A DNA stretch of 64,000 nucleotides from Candidatus Aminicenantales bacterium (GTDB lineage: Bacteria > Acidobacteriota > Aminicenantia > Aminicenantales > UBA4085), in NCBI GenBank assembly GCA_049515535.1, contig JBEKTZ010000001.1:206599-270598 (forward strand), read 5' to 3'. This document shows positions 7,760 through 59,791 of this stretch, piece by piece. Position numbers and translations under genes: made by a program. Each line of letters starts with the position of its first letter. Within the stretch, counting starts at the first letter, position 1. The notes under the pieces were generated by a model. The model saw only the letters and a list, made by a program, of their open reading frames with translations. It searched no databases and was not told the DNA's origin.

Positions 7760-10053
7760 GCCCGCGCGCCTCCGCCGGCCCCGGATTCCCGGTAGTGATA
7801 GTGATAATGCTTGTAATAATATCCGAGATCCCGCACGTTCAGATGATTGAGCACGACGCCTATCGTCTTGATGTTCATCATATCGAGTTTCTCCTTGGCT
7901 ATTCTGAGGGATTCCCGGGACGTTTTCCCGCTCCAGACGATCAGGATGACGCCGTCCGTATGCGGGGCGACGACCAGGGCATCGGTCACGGCCAGGATCG
8001 GCGGCGTGTCCAGCACGATATAATCGAACCCCATAATCGAATGCTTCAACTGAGACAACAGCGCCGCCATCCTCTCCGACCCCAAGAGCTCCGCCGGATT
8101 GGGCGGGAGCGGGCCCGAATTGATCAAGAATAAGTTCTTGATCATCGTCGGCTTGATCAAGTCTTTGAATTCCGCGCCGATGGTCAGGCAGTTCGTCAGC
8201 CCGTGCAGGTTCTTGATGCCGAAGATACGGTGCTGACGCGGTTTTCTCAAATCGGCGTCCACGATCAGGACCCGCTTATTGTCCTGGGCCAGAGTGACCG
8301 CGAAATTGCAGATGTTGGCGCTTTTCCCCTCCGACGGCAGCGCGCTCGTGATGAGCATCGTTTTGCGGCTCGGCCCGGCCGAAGACAACAGGAATGCCGC
8401 TCGAAGCGACCTATAGCTCTCCGAGAAATTCGACTTGGGGGCGTAATGGGTAATCAGCTCGATATGGGTGATGGGTTTCTTTTTTTCGGCCTTGATTTCG
8501 TTCTCTTTTTCCGTTTTTCTTTCCTCTACACCCGCCTCGGCAATCTCTTCTTTTTTCCTCTTCCTTTCCTTCCTCTCCCCCTGCCCATATCCGTAGCCGT
8601 ACCCGTAGCCTTTTTTGTATCCGGCCTTGCTGAATTCCGGGATGATGCCGAGCGTCGGCAGGTCGGCCGACCGCTCCACGTCTTCGCTCGTTTTGACCGA
8701 ATTGTCCAAGTATTCCATCAGGAAGGCGAGCCCGAGACCGCCGAAGAGCCCCAGAAAAAGCGCCAGGAGCAGATTCCTCTGTTTGTTAGGGCTCGACGGC
8801 GCGACCGGCACCCTGGCCGGATCCACGACGCGGACATTCGACGTCCTCAATCCGCGGAGGCGGGCCGAGACGTCCGTTTCGCTCAGTCTCTTCATCAACG
8901 ATTCCAGCATATTTTTTTTATTATCGATCTCGATTTTCAAGCTGTTATAAGCGATGGCGTTGGAATTGAGCAGAAGCGCTTCCTGCTTCTGATTGTTGAA
9001 GACCCGGGTCAGGGACTGCTCCTTCTTCAGCGCGGCCTGGAAATCCGAATACGTGCCCTTGATAAAACTCTGCGTTTCAGCTTCGAGCGCCGCCCTGGTC
9101 GTTTCCAGCTCGGATTTCAGACGGACCATTTCCGGATAATCGGCCTTGTAGGTTTCCGTTTTCTTCTGATAATCGCGGCTCAGGCCGACATAGGTTTCGC
9201 GCAGTCTCTGGATCAATTGATTGCCCATGGTCTCGGGGATGTAATCCGGCGAAGCGATTTTGACCTCGTTGTAATACGTCTCTTTTTTGATTCTATCGAT
9301 CATCGCCTCGGTCAGAGCGCTGTTCAACGCCCCCAGCTTTTCGATTGTGGTCGTTTCCTTGTCGCTCAGGGCAACGATGTTTTTTTCCGCCCCGTATTTT
9401 TGGAGCTCCTGTTGGGCGCTATCGATCTCTTTTTTTAAAGACTTGATCTGATTGGAGAGAAACTCCGACGCCTGCTCGGTGGCGGCGTATTTCGCTTCGA
9501 TGCTCATGTCGACAAAGGCTTCGAAGAGCGCGTTCACGATGTCGGCCGCCATGTTCGGATCCGGATCGCTGTAGGCGATATCCACGAGCCGGGTCAGACG
9601 GACCGGAGTGACTTTGATCCCGCCCATCAAGGATTCGGCCAGTCCTCGCTTGAAACCCGCTTCTTTGGGATCCACAGGCCGGCCGTTATGATTCGCCGGA
9701 GCGGAATCGAGCTCCCGGGCTTTCTTCTCGGCCAGGCCCAGCTTATCCACCGTCCGCTCGGCCAGGGCATAGCTCTGGAGCAGTTTATACTGGGTTTGAT
9801 AATAATCATCCCTGAACGATTCGATCTGAAACATATCCTGGAACGTCAAAATATTCGGCTCTTTTTCGATGAGCAAGGTTCCTTTCGCCGTATATATCGG
9901 CGTCATCGTAAAAGTCTTGAACGCCGCGCCGGCTAATACGACCAGGACAAAAGCGGCGATCATCCATCGCCTCTTAGTGACGATCCTCCAATATTCATTT
10001 AGGTTGATCTCTTGCGGTTTTAAAGTGCTTTTTCCGTTGTTTATTTCGTTCAT
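7756..10053 (-). CDS. wzc: Polysaccharide co-polymerase / BY tyrosine autokinase
   Basis: Two TM segments, periplasmic coiled coil, Walker A SALPSEGKS, A' IVDADLRKP, B IVLDTPP, C-terminal Tyr cluster. Confidence 0.95.
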   Translation of the reverse strand: MNEINNGKSTLKPQEINLNEYWRIVTKRRWMIAAFVLVVLAGAAFKTFTMTPIYTAKGTLLIEKEPNILTFQDMFQIESFRDDYYQTQYKLLQSYALAERTVDKLGLAEKKARELDSAPANHNGRPVDPKEAGFKRGLAESLMGGIKVTPVRLTRLVDIAYSDPDPNMAADIVNALFEAFVDMSIEAKYAATEQASEFLSNQIKSLKKEIDSAQQELQKYGAEKNIVALSDKETTTIEKLGALNSALTEAMIDRIKKETYYNEVKIASPDYIPETMGNQLIQRLRETYVGLSRDYQKKTETYKADYPEMVRLKSELETTRAALEAETQSFIKGTYSDFQAALKKEQSLTRVFNNQKQEALLLNSNAIAYNSLKIEIDNKKNMLESLMKRLSETDVSARLRGLRTSNVRVVDPARVPVAPSSPNKQRNLLLALFLGLFGGLGLAFLMEYLDNSVKTSEDVERSADLPTLGIIPEFSKAGYKKGYGYGYGYGQGERKERKRKKEEIAEAGVEERKTEKENEIKAEKKKPITHIELITHYAPKSNFSESYRSLRAAFLLSSAGPSRKTMLITSALPSEGKSANICNFAVTLAQDNKRVLIVDADLRKPRQHRIFGIKNLHGLTNCLTIGAEFKDLIKPTMIKNLFLINSGPLPPNPAELLGSERMAALLSQLKHSIMGFDYIVLDTPPILAVTDALVVAPHTDGVILIVWSGKTSRESLRIAKEKLDMMNIKTIGVVLNHLNVRDLGYYYKHYHYHYRESGAGGGARA

Positions 10054-10082
10054 TTCAACTTACCTCTCTCTTGTAATTCGGG

Positions 10083-10174
10083 TACGAAATTCGGGGACAT
10101 GACCCAATTCTCTGGAATTGGGATCGTGTCGTCGAATTTCGTATTCTCTTGTGCGATCGTGTCGTCGAATTTCG
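10083..10174. repeat. REP-like hairpin copy (inverted relative to the other three) plus an extra half copy
   Basis: TACGAAATTCGGGGACA...CCCAATTC-tctg-GAATTGGG...TGTCGTCGAATTTCGTA (10083-10143); GATCGTGTCGTCGAATTTCG repeated at 10155-10174. Confidence 0.85.
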
Positions 10175-10177
10175 CCC

Positions 10178-10858
10178 TCATTTCTCCGCTTTCTCCGCGT
10201 CCCTCAGGAACATCTTCACCGTCTCCTTCGAATACGGATGGACGATCATTCCGTATAATAGCTCCGGAACCACGGTCACGACGTGGGCGCCCGCTGCCAG
10301 CCACTCGATGACGTTCAGGACCTCCCGGGTCGAGCCGGAGATGATCTTCGCCTTGAGGCCTTGGGCGTCAAGGACCTGCCGCGCCTTCCGAATTTCCTCG
10401 ACGCAGTTGTAGCCCATATTATTGACCCGGCCCCCGAAAATGGAAACATACGTCGCGCCGGCGAGCGCGGCCAACAGGCATTGCTGGGCGCTCATCATGG
10501 CCGTGACGTTGACCCGGACATCATTTTTCGTTTCCAGATCATGGACGATTTCGAGGTTCTCCAACTCCCCTTCAGGCCCATGGATCGTGATCTTCACCAC
10601 GATGTTCTTCGCCCAGCCGGCGAATTCGCGGGCCTGCTCGAGCATGGCTTTCGGCTCGTTCGTCGTGACTTCGACGGACAGCGGATGCGGCGTGATGAGC
10701 TTCGCGATCTCGATGGACCGGGTTTTGATGGCTTCACGGCCGCCCGTCACTCCCGCCTTGAGGAGAATCGTCGGATTCGTCGTCACCCCGCGGATGATCC
10801 CCATCCGCGCAAATCTCGCAACATCGTCGATCTTGCCGGTGTCTAAAAAAATACACAT
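10178..10858 (-). CDS. tal: Transaldolase (short TalC/FSA-like family)
   Basis: IFLDT, GVTTNPT, Schiff-base VVKI; LSVEV (Glu) and YVSIFGGR (Phe) match transaldolase rather than fructose-6-P aldolase (Gln/Tyr); GGAGG SD. Confidence 0.9.
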   Translation of the reverse strand: MCIFLDTGKIDDVARFARMGIIRGVTTNPTILLKAGVTGGREAIKTRSIEIAKLITPHPLSVEVTTNEPKAMLEQAREFAGWAKNIVVKITIHGPEGELENLEIVHDLETKNDVRVNVTAMMSAQQCLLAALAGATYVSIFGGRVNNMGYNCVEEIRKARQVLDAQGLKAKIISGSTREVLNVIEWLAAGAHVVTVVPELLYGMIVHPYSKETVKMFLRDAEKAEK

Positions 10859-10871
10859 TTTTCCTCCGTAA

Positions 10872-11039
10872 CAGTAATCAGTAATCTGTCATCAGTGAAC
10901 AGTAATTAGAAATCAGTAACCAGTAATCGGTGAACAGTTCTCAGTTATGAGTAATCAATGAACTGTAATCAGTAAGAAGTAACCTGTAAGAAGTAATCGG
11001 CAATCAGTTATCAGCAAGAAGCAATCAGTATTCAGAAAT
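10872..11039 (+). repeat. Degenerate heptamer tandem array (CAGTAAT)x24
   Basis: 24 units in perfect 7-bp phase (cagtaat cagtaat ctgtcat cagtgaa ... cagtatt cagaaat); the last two overlap the end of the four-helix-bundle gene. Confidence 0.95.
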
Positions 11040-11387
11040 CATTGACATTTTTAGGGAGTTAAGAAGACCAAAAAGCATTTTCCTTATGGTTTCAAGTTCA
11101 GCCAAAAAATCTTCCGACTTCAATAAATTCAGATTAGCTGAAATGAGCAATAGGGTCTCGATTTCACTTAACGATCCGATTCCGATATAAATGAATTGTA
11201 TAAATTCTTTTTTAGTCTGTCTTGCCGCTCCTTCGGCAATATTCGCCGCTATTGAAACCGCTGCTCTACGAATTTGTGATTTTAAGCCGAATTCTTCTGA
11301 CTTAGGAAAATCATTTGTCGCAGTATATATTTGCGTGACAAAACGCATGGCTCTCTTCCATACATCCAAATCTTTATGCGTTTTCAC
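11025..11387 (-). CDS. Four helix bundle protein (23S rRNA intervening-sequence protein / Avd-like family)
   Basis: HKDLDVWK...FPKSEEFGLKSQIRRAAVSIAANIAEG...EFIQFIYIGIGSLSEIETLL signature; AT-richer than neighbours. Confidence 0.93.
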   Translation of the reverse strand: MKTHKDLDVWKRAMRFVTQIYTATNDFPKSEEFGLKSQIRRAAVSIAANIAEGAARQTKKEFIQFIYIGIGSLSEIETLLLISANLNLLKSEDFLAELETIRKMLFGLLNSLKMSMISEY

Positions 11388-11557
11388 TTCTTCCTCTTCA
11401 CTTTTTCTTTTTACTGTTCACTTCTTTCTGTTTACTGTTTTCTTCTTATTATTCACTTTTTACTTCTTACTGATCACCGTTCACTGCTTACTGCTTTCTG
11501 CTTACTTCTTACTGCTTACTGATCACTGTTCACTGCTTACTGTTTCACTGATTACTT
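11383..11557 (-). repeat. Degenerate heptamer tandem array (CAGTAAG on minus strand, ~24 units), inverted relative to 10872-11039
   Basis: Plus strand tttactg ttcactt ctttctg ... cttactg atcactg ttcactg ... attactt; two 1-nt phase slips; includes the upstream gene's stop codon and the SD/GTG of the bundle gene. Confidence 0.93.
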
Positions 11558-12211
11558 TGTGCTTTCCCACTTCGTTTCGTGTATTTTCAGGGCTGGATGG
11601 CTGGTGAGCAGGTGCCAGACCACGGCCTGAAAAGCCTCGGTGTGCGGAGTTATCGTCTCATGATTCACCGGAGGAATGATGACGCAGGCGTCGGCCCCGC
11701 GGGCCGTAAACCCGCCGTCTCTGCCGACAATACCCAGGACGATCGCGTTGCAGACCTTGGCGAATTCCACCGCCCGAACGAGGTTCGAACTGATGTTTTT
11801 CTCCAGATTCCCGCCGCCGACGGAAAGCACGAAAACCCCGTCGTTTTCGCACAGCCGGCTTTTTTTCAGCCATTCGACGAAAATATATTCCCAGCCCTCA
11901 TCGTTGATCCTCGCCGTCAGCTCGGAAATATTATCGACCGGAGTGTAGGCTTCGAACCCGCAGATTTTGCGAAAATCGTTCACAGCGTGCGAGGCGTTCG
12001 CCGCGCTTCCGCCTACGCCAAGGAAAAAAAGGCGGCCGCCCCGCTCGCGGATCTCGACAAGAGCCTGGATCATTCGATTGATGCTGTCCTTGTCGAGCTG
12101 ATCGACGATGTCCTTGACTTCGGACAAATAGCCCTCTGTATAATCCGGCTCGAGTTCCCGGACGATCGCTGGAAATAAAGCCAGGTTGAGGTTGTCAGTC
12201 AGGAAGCCCAT
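11552..12211 (-). CDS. SIS-domain phosphosugar isomerase (GmhA-like)
   Basis: FFLGVGGSAANASHAVNDF, TARINDEGW, SVGGG, SSNLV, GRDGG, PHTEAFQ. Start placed at MGFLTD (SD-like GGAAGGG upstream). Confidence 0.88.
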   Translation of the reverse strand: MGFLTDNLNLALFPAIVRELEPDYTEGYLSEVKDIVDQLDKDSINRMIQALVEIRERGGRLFFLGVGGSAANASHAVNDFRKICGFEAYTPVDNISELTARINDEGWEYIFVEWLKKSRLCENDGVFVLSVGGGNLEKNISSNLVRAVEFAKVCNAIVLGIVGRDGGFTARGADACVIIPPVNHETITPHTEAFQAVVWHLLTSHPALKIHETKWESTK

Positions 12212-13385
12212 ATTTCCCTTCCAGGATGAATTCATGTGCGATCTCCTTGAGATAATTTTTCCCCGCTTCAGTGATCCCAAAACTCACCGGATCATAAAAT
12301 CGTCCGTCCACGAAGCGATGAAGCTCGGCCATGGAGGCGAAGCCGGAGAGCGGGCATTCTTCGACCTCAAACCCCGCTCCTCGCTTTTGAATAGTCAGCA
12401 GGCTCGTCTCGCTGCCGGAGCCGAGCATTATTTCCACAGCCCGCCGGCCGAGCCTATCGGCCCAGACTCTGTCCAAAGGAGTCGACGCTCCCGCGCGATA
12501 AAGATAAGATGGATTCACGGCATTCACATTCCTCGTGTCAAAACGATCGGCCAGGTCTTTTTTAAGCCGGCTTTTCAAAGCCTCGGCGGCGCCGCCGAAC
12601 CTGGGATGGCCGTAATCCGGCCCTTCATCATCTTCAGCGCTGATGAATGATCCATCCGCCCATTTCGCGCCCTCAGCCGCCACGATAATGAGATGTCTCC
12701 TCCGCTCATACGCTGAAATCACGGCATCTAAAAATCTTTCGTAGTCCAACGGGAACTCGGGAATGATGATAAAATCGGGATTCCCCAGCCCCGCTGCCAG
12801 AGCCAGCCAGCCGGCATGCATTCCCATAGCCTCGACAACGATGATTCGTTCATGGGAATAGGCCGTCGTGCGCAGCCCTTCCTTCAGGCTTACGAAAGAC
12901 GCGATTTTTTCAGCGGCGGTCGGAAAACCCAAGTTAAAATAATTGAGGACATTTTCGGGATCGAACCCGGCCGCTTTTTCGTTTCCGCGGACGTCCATCT
13001 TTCCTACATCGTTGTCGATTGTCTTAGCAATCAAAACCTGGCGGAATCCGCCAAGTCGAAAAGCATTGGAGAGGGTATCTTCTCCGCCGACGACGATCAG
13101 CCCTTCGAGTCTGAGCTTTGCGAATACACCGAGCGCTTTTTCCGGGCCGTTTTCCATTCGCCCGAGGCCTGTCCGGGACGACTTCAGAACCGTCCCCCCA
13201 ATTTCAGGATTTAGCGGGAATTCCGTAAGCTCGACGAATTTCTCTTCAAGAACCCCCTGCCATCCCTTGATGAAGCCGATCAATTTCGCGCCCGCCGCCC
13301 TGGCGGTCTCGGCGGCCGACGCGATCAAGGCATTGAGCGGCGGCACATCCCCGCCGCCGGTGAGAATAGCGATTTTCTTTTCCAT
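12195..13385 (-). CDS. Phosphofructokinase family protein, PPi-dependent signature
   Basis: ILTGGGDVPPLN, GGTVLKSSRT, GGEDT, AKTIDND, VEAMG, IIIPE motifs; start at MEKKIA. Confidence 0.88.
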   Translation of the reverse strand: MEKKIAILTGGGDVPPLNALIASAAETARAAGAKLIGFIKGWQGVLEEKFVELTEFPLNPEIGGTVLKSSRTGLGRMENGPEKALGVFAKLRLEGLIVVGGEDTLSNAFRLGGFRQVLIAKTIDNDVGKMDVRGNEKAAGFDPENVLNYFNLGFPTAAEKIASFVSLKEGLRTTAYSHERIIVVEAMGMHAGWLALAAGLGNPDFIIIPEFPLDYERFLDAVISAYERRRHLIIVAAEGAKWADGSFISAEDDEGPDYGHPRFGGAAEALKSRLKKDLADRFDTRNVNAVNPSYLYRAGASTPLDRVWADRLGRRAVEIMLGSGSETSLLTIQKRGAGFEVEECPLSGFASMAELHRFVDGRFYDPVSFGITEAGKNYLKEIAHEFILEGKYGLPD

Positions 13386-59725: not shown

Positions 59726-59791
59726 TAAATACAGAGATCTAATAAATACGGGGATACATTCACTCGATTCACGATTCACGATTCACGATCA
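59719..59791. repeat. Short direct repeats between convergent ATPase genes
   Basis: GATCTAATAAATAC twice (59719, 59736); (CGATTCA)x3.7 at 59765-59791 overlapping the stop of 59776-61218. Confidence 0.75.

Follow-up and report, generated by a model that had tools for sequence, protein, structure and literature searches.

A four-helix-bundle gene between inverted heptamer-repeat arms: a foreign operon insert in an Aminicenantales genome with the usual layout of its gene family

The subject of this study is a 684-bp element in a 64,000-nucleotide stretch of DNA (the window) from a Candidatus Aminicenantales bacterium (contig JBEKTZ010000001.1). The element, called here the cassette (10868..11551, minus strand), lies between the genes for a SIS-domain sugar isomerase and a transaldolase-family enzyme. 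It consists of a gene of protein family PF05635 with an array of phased 7-bp repeats on each side, the two arrays being inverted relative to each other. Comparison with related genomes supported the conclusion that the cassette is a foreign, self-contained insert in a conserved operon, and a survey of the gene family demonstrated that this repeat-armed layout is usual for the family across many phyla. The explanation that we consider rather probable is that the cassette is a promoter-less element of the intervening-sequence (IVS) type that rides on the operon transcript, with a stem that is probably cut by RNase III and arms that are kept alike by copying at the DNA level. The widespread design seems to be undescribed in print, and the window copy is an extreme specimen of it.

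The limits of the cassette were set by comparing its junctions with those of seven syntenic relatives and by its low GC content (0.36) and predicted fold. The upstream (5') arm (11388..11556, minus strand) was identified by Tandem Repeats Finder (TRF), in-phase cutting, and composition, and contains about 24 phased heptamers with the consensus CAGTAAG. The downstream (3') arm (10868..11041, minus strand), identified by TRF and as part of inverted-repeat pair I1, contains 25 phased heptamers whose consensus, when reverse-complemented, is CAGTAAT. TRF reported the array at 10868–11041 with period 7, 25.0 copies, and 65% matches; the array at 11386–11556 was reported in overlapping rows with periods 7, 14, and 21 (8.1 copies and 74% matches for period 21; 19.4 and 13.7 copies for the two period-7 rows). 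The arrays are thus degenerate, with 65–76% matches, and one register is kept throughout both of them except for a single 8-nt unit. Unit positions 2, 3, and 6 were the best conserved in both arms. Purines make up 78% of the upstream arm on the coding strand, where the downstream arm is pyrimidine-rich. A first-pass annotation of the window, made from the letters alone, had described inverted arrays of about 24 degenerate but phased 7-bp units spanning about 170 bp on each side, and TRF, in-phase cutting, and the complementarity of the arms all bear out that description.

The cassette contains a single open reading frame (ORF), which encodes a protein of 120 amino acids (11025..11387, minus strand). 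The SIS stop codon, TAA (11552–11554), belongs to the outermost unit of the upstream arm, and the cassette block ends 3 nt ahead of GGAGG (10863–10867), the Shine-Dalgarno (SD) sequence of the transaldolase gene. The coordinates and the junction comparison therefore agree with the earlier statement that the cassette fills the gap from the isomerase stop codon nearly to the transaldolase SD. The same annotation held that the repeats supply the SD, start, and stop of the cassette gene, and this was also correct: the innermost, degenerate units of the upstream arm contain an SD-like GAGGAAG and the GTG start codon (11387), and the downstream arm takes in the final 17 nt of the ORF together with the TGA stop codon (11025–11027).

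The two arrays form an inverted repeat with arms at 10870–11003 and 11411–11544 (134 nt, 71% complementary). Minus-strand RNA from 10860 to 11560 was predicted to fold at −204.4 kcal/mol, compared with −152.6 ± 6.9 kcal/mol for shuffled sequences (z −7.5), and none of the 20 shuffles was as good. In the predicted minimum-energy fold the outer arrays pair with each other and the ORF lies in the loop. The cassette thus has terminal inverted repeats closing a stem around an ORF, as in the ORF-bearing IVSs of 23S rRNA, and also tandem 7-bp units with the capacity for hairpin formation between genes of an operon, as in sequences of the short tandemly repeated repetitive (STRR) type. The arms were 59–70% complementary in every register, with no register privileged, as expected from the proposal that a long imperfect duplex in many registers loops out the ORF. 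The order of the units was not mirrored between the arms: identity in the best register was 0.699, compared with 0.705 ± 0.019 for shuffled orders, and 1174 of 2000 shuffles equaled or exceeded the observed value. We conclude that the two arrays expanded and decayed independently. The persistence of phase in degenerate units had been taken as a sign of selection on periodicity; if the units decay by substitution, phase is kept without selection, and we do not retain that claim.

Arrays of the CAGTAA unit type were found at only two places in the whole 3.45-Mb genome, the cassette and one site without an ORF. The latter (contig C1:437894–438005, outside the window) has about 16 CAGTAA-type heptamers, changing to CAGTTTA from midway, is predicted to fold modestly on itself (−34.6 kcal/mol, z −4.4), and lies between two genes on the same strand. 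Rfam gave no match on the cassette arms and no rRNA within 10000–12500. A scan for promoters and terminators gave no more sites than shuffled sequences did, and none at the cassette arms. There is no T-run within 2 nt after the stem, such as an intrinsic terminator would have; the nearest run of seven T's on the coding strand is about 20 nt beyond the stem, within the transaldolase gene.

The 120-residue protein matched PF05635 (23S rRNA intervening-sequence protein) with E 1.9e-36 and 124.9 bits (cut-off 33.8), TIGR02436 (four helix bundle protein) with 122.3 bits (cut-off 24), and NF008911 with 141.2 bits (cut-off 137). Its closest solved relative was 2gsc_A (XCC0516; E 4.1e-23), from an entry with five chains; 2rld_A was also matched. 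In the solved relatives the four-helix bundle assembles into a ring, a pentamer. Its motif conforms to the description in the available text of PMC3936711. Two models of Avd, a protein of diversity-generating retroelements (DGRs), gave weak matches below their cut-offs (PF22296, 24.5 bits with a cut-off of 40; NF033474, 29.5 bits with a cut-off of 80), and no reverse transcriptase gene was found among the four neighbors scanned, which encode phosphofructokinase, SIS isomerase, transaldolase, and Wzz-kinase. The family tie to rRNA intervening sequences and to Avd that the first-pass annotation stated is supported by these matches and by the IVS of Coxiella as presented in the available text of PMC4990558. 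No defense family in PADLOC matched the cassette protein. The source genome has one PF05635 gene. For orthologues of the family, the ratio of nonsynonymous to synonymous substitution rates (dN/dS) was 0.05–0.27 with a median of 0.155 (14 alphaproteobacterial pairs with 0.05 < dS < 2). The family protein is therefore under purifying selection, as measured on these alphaproteobacterial orthologues rather than on the window copy. A cassette protein kept by selection must serve either the cassette or its host.

The same-strand neighbors of the cassette are genes for phosphofructokinase, the SIS isomerase (11552..12280, minus strand; PF13580 SIS_2, 27.2 bits with a cut-off of 27), the transaldolase/fructose-6-phosphate aldolase family enzyme (10178..10858, minus strand; PF00923, E 2.9e-37), and a Wzz/tyrosine kinase. 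We searched 61 genomes, including the source genome, with a transaldolase threshold of E ≤ 1e-40. The transaldolase gene was present in eight of them (source included), and in all seven relatives the SIS gene, 58–75% identical to that of the window, was upstream of it. In five of the seven, only 12–19 nt, just a ribosome-binding site, separated the SIS stop from the start of the transaldolase gene, compared with 693 nt here; junctions without the cassette, proposed earlier as something to look for, thus exist. The other two relatives had different inserts at this junction, of 528 nt (L088:972–1501) and 142 nt (L089:2116–2259); this spacer has been hit by insertion more than once. The GC content of the cassette block was 0.359, that of the flanking genes 0.546–0.584, and that of the genome 0.568. 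PF05635 genes were found in only five of the 61 genomes (source included). Because the site is empty in five of seven relatives, the base composition is foreign, and the family is patchy in relatives, we conclude that the cassette is a self-contained unit inserted into a conserved PFK-SIS-TAL-Wzz (phosphofructokinase, SIS isomerase, transaldolase, Wzz-type) operon. The PF05635 copies of relatives in the same order were considered as possible sources; they lay at other sites, were at most 50% identical, and had other repeat units, and so show no source. A phage vehicle was also considered: three relatives of the gene were on viral contigs, one of which (6 kb) had heptamer arms and two of which were partial matches, and these made no case for it.

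A search of RNA runs for 10400–12000 listed none that contains this DNA. Contigs of four DNA runs were aligned to the stretch, with a likeness threshold of 88 for run X3; run X1, a possible source of the stretch, covers all of it. The flanking genes were covered in X3 at a depth of 20–45 with few differences, the flanks of this population being about 98% identical to the window, and pieces of the cassette were covered at a depth of at most 3 and about 92% identity. One X3 contig joined position 10896 to 11515, skipping 618 nt, with a shorter side of 21 letters, below the advised 30. In a second, which fitted the window from 11545, the SIS end was preceded by the transaldolase start codon, its SD, and about 17 more heptamer-type letters, and those letters formed a small palindrome with the SIS end, the heptamer stretch after the SD amounting to about 24 nt. 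If real, these single short contigs weakly suggest a near-empty allele, produced by deletion across the hairpin or left as a footprint. Cover of the cassette interior was low or nil in runs X2–X4, which alone is no evidence of its absence. A scan of metagenomes with the 21-nt SIS 3' end for further alleles gave one hit, L096, in an unrelated SIS gene of another organism.

To determine whether the layout of the window copy is shared by its family, the best 80 of 523 confirmed homologue loci, taken from contigs of one genome per species, were surveyed together with the window (81 places). In the autocorrelation analysis, which covered the 79 places with at least 60 nt in both flanks, lag 7 was the best lag for 55 of 79 flanks on the upstream side and for 51 of 79 on the downstream side; lag 8 was best for nine of 79 on each side. 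Of 284 control windows taken 700–900 nt away at these loci, 28 had lag 7 as their best lag. TRF found arrays of period 7 or 8 within 150 nt upstream of 54 of the 80 loci, downstream of 55, and on both sides of 42, and in 41 of those 42 the period was identical on the two sides. The energy of the flank-to-flank duplex was better than that of shuffles (z < −2) in 51 of 79, with a median of −62.6 kcal/mol compared with −44.4 kcal/mol for pairings across loci. Both sides had an exactly repeated unit at 28 of the 81 places. In 11 of these the upstream unit was the exact reverse complement of the downstream unit, and in 20 it was so within one mismatch; the corresponding values for mismatched locus pairs were 1.3% and 6.4%. 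The results demonstrate that the repeat-armed layout is usual for this family across many phyla.

The lengths and units of the arms varied greatly. The usual arm was 30–31.5 nt, or about 4–5 units (interquartile range 26–38 nt; range over loci 14–177 nt), and arms of 100 nt were reached in the survey only at L010, L035, L060, and partly L008. The degenerate arms of the window, at 171–174 nt, are about five times the family median. The upstream consensus units of 54 loci fell into 42 rotation classes. In five genomes with multiple copies (2, 4, 5, 10, and 16), the unit differed at each copy, and periods 7 and 8 coexisted in one genome. The repeat unit therefore belongs to the cassette and not to the host. 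On a tree of 106 protein sequences, the distinction between periods 7 and 8 needed five changes; shuffled labels needed 7–11, and none of 1000 shuffles reached five. Because kin share labels, this indicates that the period is inherited with the gene lineage, and not that the protein sets it. On the coding strand, 47 of 52 loci had a purine-rich upstream array (median 0.70), as did 36 of 42 distinct unit classes, and 48 of 60 loci had a pyrimidine-rich downstream array. Given the inverted arrangement, purines are enriched in the 5' arm whichever strand is read, so that the bias is a handedness of the palindrome itself. Keeping G and C apart in the two arms would stop an arm from folding on itself, but does not account for the direction of the bias. 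The arrays were also considered as frame-independent stop pads, but stops in all frames were present in 20 of 39 upstream arrays compared with 14.2 expected from units with permuted letters, and eight of 39 had none, an effect too weak to support the idea. Upstream of a PF05635 gene from Terriglobales (L075:860–1500) there are seven tandem blocks of about 97 bp, each composed of a heptamer array, a leader, the first six codons of the gene, and then a stop; here the 5' arm and the start of the gene have been duplicated repeatedly.

The neighbors of the cassettes were examined by Pfam analysis of the closest flanking ORF on either side, which for the 80 loci gave 139 ORFs. Many were operon partners: nuoC/nuoD (one or both of the pair at 12 loci), V-ATPase B/D, glyQ/glyS, pntA/pntB, pgk/tpiA, and hisD/hisC, as well as subunits of methylmalonyl-CoA mutase and of ABC transporters and numerous genes for nucleotide sugars or polysaccharides. 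No transposase, integrase, or reverse transcriptase was encoded by any of the 139 ORFs. In 44 of the 47 loci whose neighbors were on the same strand as each other, the cassette gene was on that strand; in three it was on the opposite strand. Because the stem is symmetrical and yet the orientation is biased, we conclude that the gene needs the transcription of its host. Many of the closest homologues (L004, L006, L007, L008, L029, L003, L010, L031, and L043) lay within nucleotide-sugar or polysaccharide biosynthesis operons, next to genes such as Epimerase_2, Polysacc_synt_C, and GDP_Man_Dehyd; the window copy is likewise near a Wzz-type gene.

The cassettes between nuoC and nuoD (L044, L045, L050, L053, L056, L064, L065, L066, L070, L072, L078, and L080) represent one old insertion common to several alphaproteobacterial families and allowed the arms to be compared at one orthologous site. 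In these cassettes the end of nuoC extends into the first unit, and nuoD begins shortly past the other arm. The main unit differed by lineage (CGAATAG, CGAATGG, TGAGTAG, or GCAGTAG) and was the same in both arms each time. By this comparison of sequences, the unit has switched in both arms at least three times at this site.

On the basis of these results we propose the following course of events, which we regard as the most probable overall. A foreign PF05635 cassette was inserted exactly between the SIS stop codon and the transaldolase ribosome-binding site, where read-through from the promoter of the operon would transcribe it. In the RNA the arms would pair as a long imperfect stem and so mark off the cassette, and by analogy with the ORF-bearing IVSs of 23S rRNA this stem would be a substrate for RNase III, so that the flanking cistrons stay usable. 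Complementarity of the arms would be kept up mainly by replication slippage within each arm and by template switching or conversion between the arms of the quasi-palindrome; selection on the RNA that tolerates wobble pairs is a less likely cause. Template switching at quasi-palindromes is an established mutational route according to the available text of PMC7202029. In the source genome the arms may have grown to about 24 units each and later decayed by substitution.

Several observations weigh against this proposal. Transcription, formation of the stem, and its cutting are all things that we infer. No target-site duplication is visible at the cassette junctions. About one-fourth of the homologue loci had no clear array, and a few (L010/L099, from Winogradskyella, and L005) carried long arrays that were direct rather than inverted and had duplex energies near zero. 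Related loci are not independent, 12 of the 80 being the single old nuoC/nuoD insertion. The long arms of the window, about 70% complementary in any register, may be decaying rather than maintained. If pairing in the sense RNA were selected, mismatches that form G·U pairs in that RNA should be in excess. Among the 76 of 79 loci with at least 14 matched arm positions, there were 121 transition mismatches that give G·U in the sense RNA and 111 that give G·U in the antisense RNA (p 0.55), together with 369 transversion mismatches. A comparison of sense with antisense duplex energies divided the loci 44 to 32 (p 0.04), a marginal result from a measure that includes sequence outside the arms. With no such excess, the sense RNA gives no hint of being under selection, and the stem may have a role as DNA or none. 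Considered together, the two-sided switches of the unit and the absence of a G·U bias fit upkeep at the DNA level best, and better than selection on wobble pairs in RNA; a role for an RNA stem is still compatible with both.

The alternative that survives best, a possibility that we rate clearly below our proposal, is that the arms are the terminal inverted repeats or hairpin ends of a small fold-back element that moves as DNA, through the action of the cassette protein or of an enzyme, host or foreign, supplied in trans, with any RNA structure being incidental. It is compatible with the reading that we prefer. The empty sites in relatives, the foreign GC content, and the patchy occurrence of the family at differing sites all agree with mobility, as do the presence of up to 16 copies at unrelated sites in one genome, the ORF-less array of the same CAGTAA unit type elsewhere in the source genome, and the absence of a wobble bias on the sense strand. 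The X3 contigs also resemble a near-empty allele, although they are single short metagenome contigs accepted at a likeness threshold of 88. However, none of the 139 neighboring ORFs encodes a transposase, integrase, or reverse transcriptase, and the cassette has no target-site duplication, no transposase in cis, and no conserved end sequence shared between cassettes, such as would mark a transposon or miniature inverted-repeat transposable element (MITE). The source genome has only one gene-bearing copy, and the nuoC/nuoD cassette stayed at one site across several alphaproteobacterial families. The 44-to-3 orientation bias is also unexpected for a symmetrical DNA element unless expression matters.

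It is also conceivable, but we think it unlikely, that the arms are a binding array, in which a ring-forming bundle protein binds the heptamers, as RNA or DNA, with one unit per subunit, and thereby regulates its own translation or aids persistence or movement of the cassette. A protein that binds the periodic RNA was the main idea of the first-pass annotation. Avd works with nucleic acid in DGRs, and its family link to the cassette protein was seen in the model matches. A period of 7, or less often 8, is found at most loci whatever the unit and tracks the protein tree; the usual arm has about 4–5 units, and the closest solved relative of the protein, 2gsc, was deposited with five chains. Purifying selection on the protein and the better conservation of unit positions 2, 3, and 6 in the window arms point in the same direction. 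The units are nevertheless very diverse, and even close orthologues with 56–71% identical proteins differ in unit, so that recognition of a specific sequence would need constant re-tuning. The period could equally be inherited with the arms, and arrays of 20–25 units fit no fixed stoichiometry.

A broader idea, which is more speculative still, is that the PF05635 ring proteins and the short-period hairpin arrays are one widespread self-maintaining system, with the protein acting on the hairpin of its own arms in DNA or RNA. The protein may promote templated copying from arm to arm or protect the hairpin from deletion, and this may be related to the way in which Avd assists templated synthesis beside a DNA hairpin in DGRs. 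If true, this would explain the joint switches of the unit, the richness of the 5' arm in purines on either strand, and the inheritance of the period with the protein, and also the origin of ORF-less heptamer hairpins such as the cyanobacterial STRRs and of the rRNA intervening sequences.

We consider it improbable that the stem is primarily an attenuator, terminator, or stability element for the transaldolase and polysaccharide-export genes, with the ORF as a passenger. Its position, from the SIS stop codon to 3 nt before the transaldolase SD, would suit such a function, and in the available text of PMC2670836 an influence on the stability of the transcript or on translational coupling is proposed for ORF-less STRR hairpins located between hupS and hupL in cyanobacteria. 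Against this, the arms have no T-run within 2 nt and no listed terminator, five of seven relatives run the same operon with a 12–19-nt spacer, the ORF of the family is under purifying selection, and sister cassettes split subunits of one complex, where blocking read-through would do harm. The first-pass annotation had called the cassette a self-contained mobile or regulatory unit that controls the downstream export genes. The self-contained insert is upheld by the empty sites, GC content, and patchiness; the control of export genes is not, because sister cassettes lie within co-expressed subunit pairs (nuoC/nuoD and glyQ/glyS) and there is no terminator-type tail. Just as improbable are neutral microsatellites, products of slippage without a role that are complementary only through a short ancestral inverted repeat: the unmirrored unit order and degeneracy of the window arrays, the variation in arm length from 14 to 177 nt, and the lack of wobble bias would suit them, but most homologues, from many phyla, show the design again, both arms switched unit together at least three times at one orthologous site, and neutral growth does not predict a purine-rich 5' arm in 47 of 52 loci and 36 of 42 unit classes.

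The known system most like the cassette, as we prefer to interpret it, is the IVS of 23S rRNA. In the IVS in helix 45 of Coxiella burnetii 23S rRNA, as described in the available text of PMC4990558, an S23p ORF is preceded by 2–3 tandem heptamers whose number varies by strain, the terminal stem is 28 bp, RNase III excises the IVS in vitro, and the ORF is reported to be decaying and probably not expressed. This IVS, and those of Leptospira and others cited there, resemble the cassette in having a PF05635 ORF in the loop, inverted repeats that close the stem, heptamers, and no mobility gene. They differ in location: the cassette is in an mRNA operon between the SIS and transaldolase genes and not inside a 23S rRNA helix. 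Because it is not inside an rRNA, we regard it as a variant of the IVS kind and not as a member. In addition, the Coxiella stem is nearly perfect over its 28 bp, whereas the arms here are about 170 nt of degenerate repeats; RNase III cutting was shown in vitro there and is only presumed here; and the ORF is decaying there, whereas the family members compared here are under purifying selection. PF05635 ORFs are also mentioned in rRNA insertions of Candidate Phyla Radiation (CPR) bacteria (available text of PMC11270868) and within cas operons, one such position being between cmr3 and cmr2 (PMC3936711).

Cyanobacterial STRRs share with the cassette the 7-bp tandem repeats, the capacity to form hairpins, and a position between genes of one operon, as for the heptamer hairpins between hupS and hupL (available text of PMC2670836); an STRR is also located inside the RNase P RNA gene, to judge from a title (Vioque 1997) in the reference list of PMC7593598. 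In the text available to us, STRRs are described without an enclosed gene or a link to PF05635, and in many copies in heterocyst-forming cyanobacteria, whereas the arrays of the cassette bracket a gene in a non-cyanobacterial genome and CAGTAA-type arrays occur at only two sites. In the Nostoc genome that we examined there are PF05635 cassettes with STRR-like units. Avd of the DGRs has a homologous four-helix-bundle fold, with weak, below-cut-off matches of its models, but neither the cassette gene nor the 80 homologues had a reverse transcriptase beside them, and there was no template/variable repeat pair. Repetitive extragenic palindromic (REP) sequences and bacterial interspersed mosaic elements (BIMEs), REPINs (REP doublets forming hairpins), and MITE-type repeats are likewise small palindromic intergenic inserts in operons without their own transposase; they have a sequence conserved across copies and no gene, whereas the cassettes have individual units, microsatellite arms, and a protein gene.

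No paper that ties PF05635 genes in general to flanking short-period arrays was found in a literature search that had subscription journals outside its coverage, and the only printed heptamers found beside such an ORF were those of the Coxiella IVS in the available text of PMC4990558. The origin of the rRNA intervening sequences and the STRR heptamer repeats of bacterial genomes appear to be faces of one cassette design, which sits inside essential operons of many phyla. Should template switching be what keeps the arms alike, the family would be a natural record of quasi-palindrome correction. The window copy has arms of the longest class; its site is cleanly empty in relatives, and a sister population may contain a nearly empty allele. 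It is for these reasons a good specimen that bears on possible processing of the stem, possible contact between protein and repeats, and the way in which two separated microsatellites stay complementary.

Two further features of the window were observed. The sequence at 10079–10147, between the transaldolase stop and the start of the Wzz-kinase gene, is hairpin-like and gave weak matches to microRNA precursors in Rfam (E 0.1). At 59765–59789, in an apparently intergenic position, there is a short solo array of the heptamer CGATTCA with 3.6 copies and 100% matches.

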